A DNA stretch of 64,000 bases from a plasmid. The stretch lies in the NCBI RefSeq assembly GCF_054482595.1, contig NZ_JBTHVH010000001.1, one strand, 5' to 3'. The translations under genes were made by a program, and so were the position numbers. Below are positions 61,096 to 64,000 of this stretch, in pieces (position 1 is the stretch's first letter; each line of letters starts with the position of its first letter). The notes under the pieces are model-generated. The model worked only from the letters and a program-made list of their open reading frames with translations, was not told the DNA's origin and made no database searches.

Positions 61096-61344
61096 TTAAT
61101 CAGCATTCAGGAGCAATGCGTTATCTATGATGATCTGCTCCCATTCTTCGAATGCCCGATCGCGGACGCCCTGGGGAACACTGTTAGTTTTGAAATCGAC
61201 GACCGTACGCCATTTCCCGTCCGGACGGTACATGCGCAGAGCTTTACTTCCCCCTTCCCTGCGCACCTCAACGTTATGCTTGTCAGCAAACTCTTGTAAT
61301 GCTCGTAACGTCCCATGCTTTACTGTGTAGTATCGCTTTTTCAA
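61096..61344 (-). CDS. small basic protein (82 aa), second gene of an overlapping pair
   Basis: Start overlaps the stop of the upstream 146-aa gene by 4 nt. Confidence 0.45.
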   Translation of the reverse strand: MKKRYYTVKHGTLRALQEFADKHNVEVRREGGSKALRMYRPDGKWRTVVDFKTNSVPQGVRDRAFEEWEQIIIDNALLLNAD

Positions 61345-61781
61345 GTTTTCTCTCCAGCCTGTGCCAAGGCTTCAACTTCCAAATCATAAGACTCAAACTC
61401 ATAGTCCTGGTCGTCAACTTCTTCAGGCACTGGCAGTAAATGCCAGGCTGAGTATATCTGACCATTATCAAAACGCTCCTGGCTGTAGAGCGTAGCGGCT
61501 ATGAGTGTTAGCGCCGGGCGGTCATAACGGTAAATTTTGCGAACGTCACGGTCAACGAGACGACCGAAATTACCATAACCGCGCTCCAGTAATAATTTTT
61601 TAATTTCCGGCCAGTATGGACCATAGCTGCGGTACAGGCGGGGATTTTTCAGTAATCGCCCGCGTAGCCCTGACAGGAAGAAATCAACGTATTCGTCTTC
61701 TGTCTTTCCTAACAACGCCGTACGCAGTACCGCCTCAAGATATGTTTTATTCGGTTTTATTGTATCAGATAGTGTGGCCAT
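61341..61781 (-). CDS. hypothetical protein (146 aa), first gene of the overlapping pair
   Basis: ORF with acidic C-terminus. Confidence 0.45.
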   Translation of the reverse strand: MATLSDTIKPNKTYLEAVLRTALLGKTEDEYVDFFLSGLRGRLLKNPRLYRSYGPYWPEIKKLLLERGYGNFGRLVDRDVRKIYRYDRPALTLIAATLYSQERFDNGQIYSAWHLLPVPEEVDDQDYEFESYDLEVEALAQAGEKT

Positions 61782-61814
61782 ATTATGCGACGCCCGGCGA
61801 ACCGGGCGCTCCTG

Positions 61815-64000
61815 TTATGCGTATTGTTGGATGACGGCCAGAACGTCCGCCACGTTGTGTTTTGTCTCGATAATCCACCAGTTACCCGGGAAATCGCTGT
61901 TCTTTGCCTTCGCTGGCAGCCAGCGAGCGCCGAATTTCGCCTTGATTGCGTCTTTCGCACGGAAAAGAATGCCTTTCATGCCGGACGCCTCCTGAAGCCC
62001 AAATACCTCGCCAGCGGCGAATTTTGGTGCGTACATCATCTTCAGGTCGGCGGTGGATACGCGATAATTCAGACCAAGAGACTGAGCTATGCTGGTGGCA
62101 TCACCCTGTATTGATGATAACTCTTCTTGTTTCTCGTTTCTGGCGGCAATTTCTTCCTCCGTGATGTTGCCAAGGGCCAGGTTTATCCGATCAGCGTCGG
62201 CCTGTTTCTCTTCATCGGTGCGCCCGGCAAGAACCGTGTTAATTCTCTGCAATATCTCCACATGATTCTTGCGCATGCTGAGCAATTCCGGCGTAACCTC
62301 GTTAAGATCCACCAGCCCAAGGATGGCAAGGTCGGAAAACATTGATACCAGGTTGTAGGTCATGCGATAGCTGAGTTGGCCATAGGCTGATGGCAACTGC
62401 ACCGCATCCATTTTATAGGCATCCATAAATTTAGAGCCGTCGTTTACGACATCCGCAATTGCCGGTGTGATTTTCCCTGTGGTGGCGGCCTCCCTGATTG
62501 CTGTTACCCACGATTGAGTCAGTGCGGCGACTGCATGATTCAGATTGGCTTCCCGTTCTGCTGCGATGCGCGCGCTTGCTGCGTCCATTGCCTGCTTGAT
62601 CTCGGCTTTATTGCTGTAAATGCCAATGGTGCCAAACTGTGCTGTGGTGATCTCATAATCTGACGCCCGGAACTCATGGGTACCGAAAATGGCATTGGTG
62701 ACCTCAAGTTCAGAATCCCCGTTACGAGTAGCCCCCTGGCTTGTTTTCTCCGGCATTCTGGCGATCGCATCCGCTATTTTCTCCTGAATTGCTTCAGGGG
62801 ATAGCGTATCTCCATATGACGCGATTACATCGCCATAATTGGAGCCAAACAGTTCAGTCAGGAATACTTCTGCCAAACGGACCTGGCGGTTATTCCCTTC
62901 AGACATCATACCAAGCACCCATTTTGCAATTGACGACTTCAGCGCGCCGTCACGGCGATCCGGGTAAACCGCATGCTTCAGTGGGTCCGTATAGGTACCA
63001 ACAAAATCAATGCTATAGCCTGACTCTGTAGTCTGAACGCCGTATGAGTCAGTGATTTTGATCATGCCGCGCTGCTGGAAACGGTAGAAATCGTCACAGG
63101 AAATGATGTCGTTAATCCCGGCGATGGAGACGCCACCACTGATTTTCTGCATAACAGCATCTTCATCGGGAGTTACATCCACCTGTTTATCCAGCGTCTT
63201 CACATCCCAGTTACCCGATTTGGTGCCTCTTAAGGTAAAGATGATCTCCACGTCTGCGCGCTGGCTGTCGAAGTCCAGCGACTTAATGCGAACGATATCA
63301 CCGGCACAATCGTAGTATTGGCCTACACGCCATGAGCGATCGCCGATAACAAGGAACTCATTCGCATGGTTAACCAGATCAGGATCAACATCCAGAATGC
63401 CTTTATTTATTGCATCCTCCACCAGCGGGCGCAGGCGTTTGATATCCGTCGCGGCCTTCTGAGTACGGTTCAATAATTTCTCATAGCGGGAGATGGCCTG
63501 AGAGATATTAGCCTTGCGCTGAATGGCGCTTTTCAACGACGCGCGATACTGTGCTAACAACATACGGTCTGTGTGATGGACACTCCCCCAGCGGGCCTTC
63601 CAGTCTGCGTTATCCGCTGCCTTGGCCATTGCCGCCTGTTTGAATTTAGCTACCTCGGCGGTGGTCTTTTCAAGTTCCGCTTTGCTTCGCTCTAATTCAG
63701 CGGTAAGTACCTCCACATCCTCGCCAGCTGCGTGCTGCGCCTTGATGTAGTTCTGAAGGTCGATAGTAGCCTGTTCTTTCTGGCGAGCGCGTTTCGCAGC
63801 TTTCGCCTTATCCATTTGAACCTGCATCATTGCCAGACGTTCGCCGTCATCCTTCGCGGTATACATCTGCATTTCGATCATGTCATTGGCGTCGGCGTTC
63901 TCCATTTCTGACTTATCTGAACGGAGGATATCGGAGATCCAGCCTGCTTTACGCTTCAGCGTCTTCAGTCGGTATTCATCGAAAGACCCCTTGCCGCAGT
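61815..64000 (-). CDS. large hypothetical protein, N-terminally truncated by the window edge (at least 728 aa)
   Basis: Reading frame remains open from 63905 to 64000; coiled-coil-rich; no Walker A or methyltransferase motifs in the visible part. Confidence 0.45.
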   Translation of the reverse strand, partial: CGKGSFDEYRLKTLKRKAGWISDILRSDKSEMENADANDMIEMQMYTAKDDGERLAMMQVQMDKAKAAKRARQKEQATIDLQNYIKAQHAAGEDVEVLTAELERSKAELEKTTAEVAKFKQAAMAKAADNADWKARWGSVHHTDRMLLAQYRASLKSAIQRKANISQAISRYEKLLNRTQKAATDIKRLRPLVEDAINKGILDVDPDLVNHANEFLVIGDRSWRVGQYYDCAGDIVRIKSLDFDSQRADVEIIFTLRGTKSGNWDVKTLDKQVDVTPDEDAVMQKISGGVSIAGINDIISCDDFYRFQQRGMIKITDSYGVQTTESGYSIDFVGTYTDPLKHAVYPDRRDGALKSSIAKWVLGMMSEGNNRQVRLAEVFLTELFGSNYGDVIASYGDTLSPEAIQEKIADAIARMPEKTSQGATRNGDSELEVTNAIFGTHEFRASDYEITTAQFGTIGIYSNKAEIKQAMDAASARIAAEREANLNHAVAALTQSWVTAIREAATTGKITPAIADVVNDGSKFMDAYKMDAVQLPSAYGQLSYRMTYNLVSMFSDLAILGLVDLNEVTPELLSMRKNHVEILQRINTVLAGRTDEEKQADADRINLALGNITEEEIAARNEKQEELSSIQGDATSIAQSLGLNYRVSTADLKMMYAPKFAAGEVFGLQEASGMKGILFRAKDAIKAKFGARWLPAKAKNSDFPGNWWIIETKHNVADVLAVIQQYA

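Follow-up and report, generated by a model that had tools for sequence, protein, structure and literature searches.

The minus-strand genes at the end of the window, i.e. of the whole 64,000-nucleotide stretch of plasmid DNA analysed, are almost certainly the lxc, ulx and darB genes of a P1-like phage-plasmid (Punavirus), which form two functionally separate units on one strand. This is the textbook lxc-ulx-darB cluster of P1, already known and ordinary, and no new defence or toxin-antitoxin operon. The identity of the three genes, their colinearity with P1, the conservation of the lxc promoters and the interruption of darB by the window edge are directly observed here, and none of the data contradict the identification.

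Positions 61096-64000 of the window align with positions 9750-12654 of P1 (NC_005856) at 98.55% identity, with 42 mismatches over 2905 nt and without any indel, the colinearity starting at 61089. When compared with the P1 segment 9750-17236 as annotated by Lobocka et al. (2004), the gene order, the strand, the gene lengths and the 4-nt overlap between ulx and lxc are all the same, a single strand carrying darB followed by ulx and then lxc. The 42 point differences change eight amino acids in the DarB fragment and two in Ulx. At the protein level, identity to P1 reaches 100% for Lxc, 98.6% for Ulx and 98.9% for the C-terminal third of DarB. Furthermore, a megablast search with positions 59000-64000 retrieved 23 phage and 781 plasmid records, almost all of them of Escherichia or Salmonella origin, and the features beneath these matches are annotated as DarB, Ulx and Lxc (modulator protein). 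The PHROG profiles agree with the three identities.

These comparisons change the picture given by the first-pass annotation, which was made from the sequence without any database search. The minus-strand ORFs that it listed are real, including the overlapping pair of small ones. The arrangement different from that of P1 that it described does not exist, since these genes are simply those of P1 itself, with proteins 98-100% identical, and do not stand in for another P1 arrangement. The apparent oddities of the region arose because the window edge cuts darB and because lxc, ulx and mat went unrecognised. All features are listed in Table 1.

Table 1. Features of the lxc-ulx-darB region, with the domains of the upstream part of P1 DarB. 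Positions are those of the window unless stated otherwise; roles are those of the P1 counterparts.
Feature	Position	Strand	Description
darB, 3' third	61815..64000 (in-frame codons 61815-63998)	-	Residues 1529-2255 of the 2255-aa DarB
N6_Mtase / Eco57I	P1 DarB residues 90-290		Pfam domain, upstream part of P1 DarB
SNF2-related	P1 DarB residues 849-1262		Pfam domain, upstream part of P1 DarB
Helicase_C	P1 DarB residues 1455-1517		Pfam domain, upstream part of P1 DarB
darB-ulx spacer, 33 nt	61782..61814	-	8-bp GC-rich hairpin at 61790-61809
ulx, 146 aa	61341..61781	-	Dar-system head protein aiding the incorporation of DarB into the capsid
P3lxc	61712..61738	-	Sigma-70 promoter of lxc within ulx; 26/27 nt identical to P1 feature 10366-10392
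P2lxc	61567..61595	-	Sigma-70 promoter of lxc within ulx; 29/29 nt identical to P1 feature 10221-10249
P1lxc	61389..61417	-	Sigma-70 promoter of lxc within ulx; 29/29 nt identical to P1 feature NC_005856 10043-10071
lxc (formerly bof), 82 aa	61096..61344	-	Corepressor/modulator of the P1 C1 repressor; TTG start
mat-lxc spacer, 39 nt	61057..61095	.	RD-1, the variable hotspot for res/mod, in its empty state
mat	60415..61056	+	Maturation control protein; convergent with lxc; longer ORF from 60361

The darB frame ends with a TAA stop codon (61815-61817) and stays open to the window edge over 727 sense codons. It had rightly been described as an open ORF, the 728 aa then attributed to it including the stop codon. 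The whole visible ORF aligns without any gap with residues 1529-2255 of P1 DarB, 719 of the 727 residues being identical, and it matches the C-terminal end of two profiles, PHROG 21007 and PHROG 1685. The large ORF is therefore a Dar-family virion protein, an outcome that the first-pass annotation had itself named as incompatible with its proposal. Its remark that helicase and methyltransferase motifs are lacking holds for the 727-aa fragment, in which Pfam detected no significant domain. However, they are lacking because the window edge cuts darB: the methyltransferase and helicase domains of the P1 protein are all N-terminal of residue 1529, and thus past position 64000, the visible part starting 12 residues after the end of Helicase_C.

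The 5' two thirds of darB being outside the window, only residues 1529-2255 can be compared, and various public alleles combine this same C-terminus with a rearranged protein. For instance, P0003/P0004 lack residues 261-1477, and in some chimeras the part from residue 1478 or 1538 onward is joined to a methyltransferase, or the part from residue 1672 onward to DarA. It is nevertheless improbable that the present copy is such an internally deleted or chimeric allele with a defective Dar-B arm. Deleted and chimeric alleles are rare, most of them being single-member clusters, and the closest complete plasmids have an intact 2255-aa DarB. Moreover, the match to P1 continues right to the window edge, which excludes the alleles that break at residue 1538, at residue 1672 or further downstream.

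The biochemical roles of the P1-type proteins identified here are carried over by analogy from the literature on their near-identical P1 counterparts. In P1, darB and ulx are components of the Dar antirestriction system (PMC9024508, PMC12810830). Dar comprises six head-packaged proteins (Hdf, DarA, DdrA, DdrB, DarB and Ulx), incorporated sequentially, that are co-ejected with the DNA and shield it in cis from type I restriction; its EcoB/EcoK arm is served by Ulx, DarB and DdrB (PMC12810830, PMC12707154). The first 30 residues of DarB are a capsid-targeting signal, about 40 copies of the protein are packaged per virion, and the virion proteome lists it under 'inhibition of EcoK and EcoB' (PMC9024508). 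P1 DarB is a 250-kDa protein in which this N-terminal signal is combined with an N6-adenine methyltransferase, a helicase of the SNF2 type and a C-terminal region of about 730 aa, the last being the only part within the window. Packaged in the head, P1 DarB is believed to accompany the DNA into the cell, and it protects this DNA in cis from type I restriction of the EcoB/EcoK type. The darA, hdf, ddrA and ddrB genes, needed for the packaging of DarB, would lie past the window edge.

The 146-aa protein encoded downstream of darB is identical to P1 Ulx (YP_006478) at 144 of its 146 positions and matches PHROG 1629, 'Ulx-like anti-restriction', with an E value of 4.5e-66. Its length and its position 33 nt past the darB stop codon also fit ulx. 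In P1, Ulx is a head protein that mass spectrometry detected in virions and that is listed as one that 'aids DarB localization' (PMC9024508); efficient incorporation of DarB needs this small head protein (PMC9024508, PMC12810830). The AlphaFold2 model of Ulx (13 sequences) has a mean pLDDT of 66, with a helical bundle at residues 1-105 followed by an acidic tail of low confidence; a Foldseek search of the PDB with this model gave no match. Nearly all homologues of Ulx come from contigs of about 90-100 kb, which is the size of P1-like elements. The predicted RNA fold of the spacer between darB and ulx (-18.1 kcal/mol, z -1.3) is indistinguishable from that of shuffled sequence.

The product of the last gene of the cluster is identical to P1 Lxc, or Bof (YP_006477), over all 82 residues and matches PHROG 2160 over its full length (E value of 7.8e-57). 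As in P1, the TTG start codon of lxc overlaps the TGA stop codon of ulx by 4 nt (TTGA on the minus strand), and a GGAG Shine-Dalgarno sequence lies 7 nt 5' of this start, within the 3' end of ulx. Therefore, some translational coupling of lxc to ulx is possible. Besides the sequence identity and this overlapping start, the presence of its own promoters within ulx identifies the gene as lxc. The assignment of P1lxc, P2lxc and P3lxc relies on the annotation of the P1 record, the three being kept with 0, 0 and 1 mismatches, respectively. A generic sigma-70 scan of positions 60900-64000 called no promoter, P1lxc included, and a terminator scan of the same interval found terminator-like sites at a frequency no higher than chance.

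In P1, Lxc is a corepressor that strengthens the binding of C1 to its operators, and lxc is transcribed constitutively from promoters that are outside C1 control (PMC8546580). Lxc would join C1 and its operators in a ternary complex, tighten repression and counteract the antirepressor Coi. A syntenic plasmid has an annotated c1 repressor gene. By analogy with P1, the cluster is an antirestriction unit (darB and ulx) adjoining an immunity unit (lxc) rather than a single defence operon. Hence, the defence or anti-restriction operon initially suggested retains its anti-restriction part for darB and ulx and loses lxc, which encodes the C1 corepressor.

The 4-nt overlap between ulx and lxc, the small size of both products and their proximity to a variable hotspot (PMC6906374) had also suggested a toxin-antitoxin or similar addiction pair. 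This is extremely improbable, as the two proteins share 99-100% identity with P1 Ulx and Lxc, whose published roles are those of a virion head protein and a C1 corepressor (PMC9024508, PMC8546580). Neither protein matches any family of Pfam, NCBIfam or PADLOC, and neither belongs to a known toxin or antitoxin family of type II systems. In addition, lxc has its own promoters within ulx, so that the pair is not a simple bicistron. Finally, a CRISPRi screen of lytic P1 growth, based on plaque formation, scored lxc, ulx and also darB as non-essential (PMC10695390).

The lxc-ulx-darB cluster is thus that of P1, and the region differs from P1 on the other side of lxc. On the 3' side of this gene, P1 carries mod-(IS5)-res, so that 6.3 kb separate mat from lxc, whereas in the window mat follows directly and 39 nt lie between the two convergent stop codons. 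A blastn search of the whole window with the res-mod-IS5 block of P1 gave no match, and the EcoPI type III restriction-modification genes are therefore absent between mat and lxc. The first-pass annotation had considered both mat and res/mod to be missing, which is correct for res/mod only. Mat is present: 207 of its 213 residues are identical to those of WP_129469058, a 'maturation control protein', the part that aligns with P1 Mat is identical at 219 of 228 positions, and it matches PHROG 1837 (E value of 5e-113). The homology with P1 ends around 61046 on the mat side and restarts at 61089 on the lxc side. The spacer includes a hairpin (61061-61081; -16.8 kcal/mol, z -2.3) that is at most marginally more stable than shuffled sequence and may be a terminator for lxc.

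The true absence of res/mod from the window and the lack of any significant Pfam match in the 727-aa fragment could evoke a new defence operon that has replaced these genes, its large protein being a new effector devoid of helicase and methyltransferase. We consider the probability of such a replacement to be negligible. The res/mod hotspot does not include the three genes, which are colinear with their P1 counterparts (98.5% identity), and nothing fills the res/mod site itself. The 'missing' domains are located, in P1 DarB, beyond the window edge, and none of the three proteins matches PADLOC or NCBIfam. Both the toxin-antitoxin pair and the new defence operon were rejected on the basis of the identity of the proteins to characterised P1 proteins.

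RD-1 is a published variable hotspot of P1-like elements (PMC6906374), and its empty junction is itself already known, since 31 of 700 matching plasmid records span the mat-lxc junction in this state. The Escherichia phage RCS47 has an empty hotspot too and aligns in a single piece from 60112 to 64000, across the junction. NZ_CP060930 has the identical junction, with 100% identity over 60850-61300. Both of them carry ref 5' of mat, whereas in the window ref is replaced by a cassette encoding a KilAC antirepressor, an Icd-like protein and an MBL-fold hydrolase. This cassette is present in 12 complete E. coli genomes. For instance, NZ_CP123199 and NZ_CP058881 carry a KilAC/icd-like/MBL/mat cassette that is about 99% identical, with the same lxc-ulx-darB; unlike the window with its 39 nt, the plasmids carrying the MBL cassette have a SIR2-family or DUF2971 gene between mat and lxc. 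No intact example of the exact combination of the MBL cassette and an empty RD-1 turned up in the collections searched, and this mosaic is a case of routine module shuffling.

Another point concerns the C-terminal third of DarB. Used as the query of an exhaustive HMMER search, the 727-aa fragment gave 105 representatives, many of which are proteins of 2200-2300 aa that align at their C-termini with 20-35% identity. Therefore, this region is a conserved part of the DarB family. Phages and conjugative elements encode DarB-like methylase-helicase 'polyvalent proteins' (Iyer et al. 2017, PMC5512222), many of which conserve it at their C-terminus at this same 20-35% identity; these relatives are a distant family, whereas the protein of the window is P1 DarB itself, within 1% divergence. 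The AlphaFold2 model of the region, built with 16 diverse homologues, has a mean pLDDT of 81. A long coiled-coil hairpin lies at 51-198 and a small beta-barrel at about 215-273; the model also has helical domains and, at the C-terminus, a small alpha/beta domain (643-724). Comparison of this third with PDB folds gave no informative neighbour apart from the coiled coil. Sequence searches against PDB chains yielded no match better than chance level (E >= 0.03). The C-terminal third also persists in several natural deletion chimeras found in public data.

Beyond the correct annotation of the locus, the significance of these results is small, and two useful elements remain. The first is the mosaic made of an empty res/mod hotspot and an MBL-fold cassette 5' of mat. 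The second is the C-terminal third of DarB, a region that has no functional assignment in P1 DarB generally. It is possible, although we put this forward tentatively, that this third is a distinct functional module, for instance one that would engage type I restriction complexes or would take part in the Ulx/DdrB-dependent docking to the capsid. This question concerns P1 DarB in general and is in no way special to the window.

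Between c8 and mat, where P1 carries the ref gene, the window instead harbors a cassette encoding a KilAC-domain antirepressor, an Icd-like product and an MBL-fold hydrolase. The same cassette was found in 12 complete E. coli genomes, whose RefSeq annotation additionally lists a gene or remnant of the Ref family. The combination of this cassette with an empty mat-lxc junction had no intact match in PLSDB, INPHARED or complete E. coli genomes. Relatives carrying the MBL cassette have SIR2 or DUF2971 at the mat-lxc site, which is empty in the window, and relatives whose mat-lxc site is empty carry ref instead of the cassette.

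Features in the window and in loci of other P1-like plasmids
Feature	Position	Strand	Remarks
c8	57010-57321		
MBL cassette	57550-60097		in place of ref
KilAC-domain antirepressor	57550-58602	minus	350 aa; in cassette
Icd-like gene			in cassette; no window position located; basis: RefSeq annotation of a syntenic plasmid
MBL-fold hydrolase	59297-60097	plus	266 aa; in cassette
mat-lxc junction	61057-61095		empty
ulx	61341-61781	minus	
darB, 3' part	61815-63998	minus	DarB residues 1529-2255
darA-darB chimera P0007	L003 6001-9078; L004 3466-6543		outside window

Ulx is named 'peptide-binding protein' in many NCBI records, a name for which no support was found in Pfam, NCBIfam or PDB. Its last 40 residues are strongly acidic and are modeled with low confidence in the predicted structure.

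In the unannotated DarB fragment encoded by the window, a few positions are invariant or near-invariant among DarB-like proteins sharing 20-35% identity. These include (fragment numbering) GSFD 4-7, W20, N34, G226, the Y-P motif 345-346, G385, N463, K686 and W708, and no catalytic motif was recognised.

Other P1-like plasmids carry rearranged darB alleles. P0007 is a chimeric protein of 1025 aa that arose by deletion: the N-terminal portion of darA now reads in frame into DarB residues 1672-2255, and ulx and lxc are still located 3' of the chimeric gene. In further alleles, the methyltransferase of DarB itself is joined directly to DarB from residue 1478 or 1538 onward. The P0007 chimera is found on at least 20 contigs, and its plasmids are degraded P1-like elements in which a Tn3-family transposase adjoins it.
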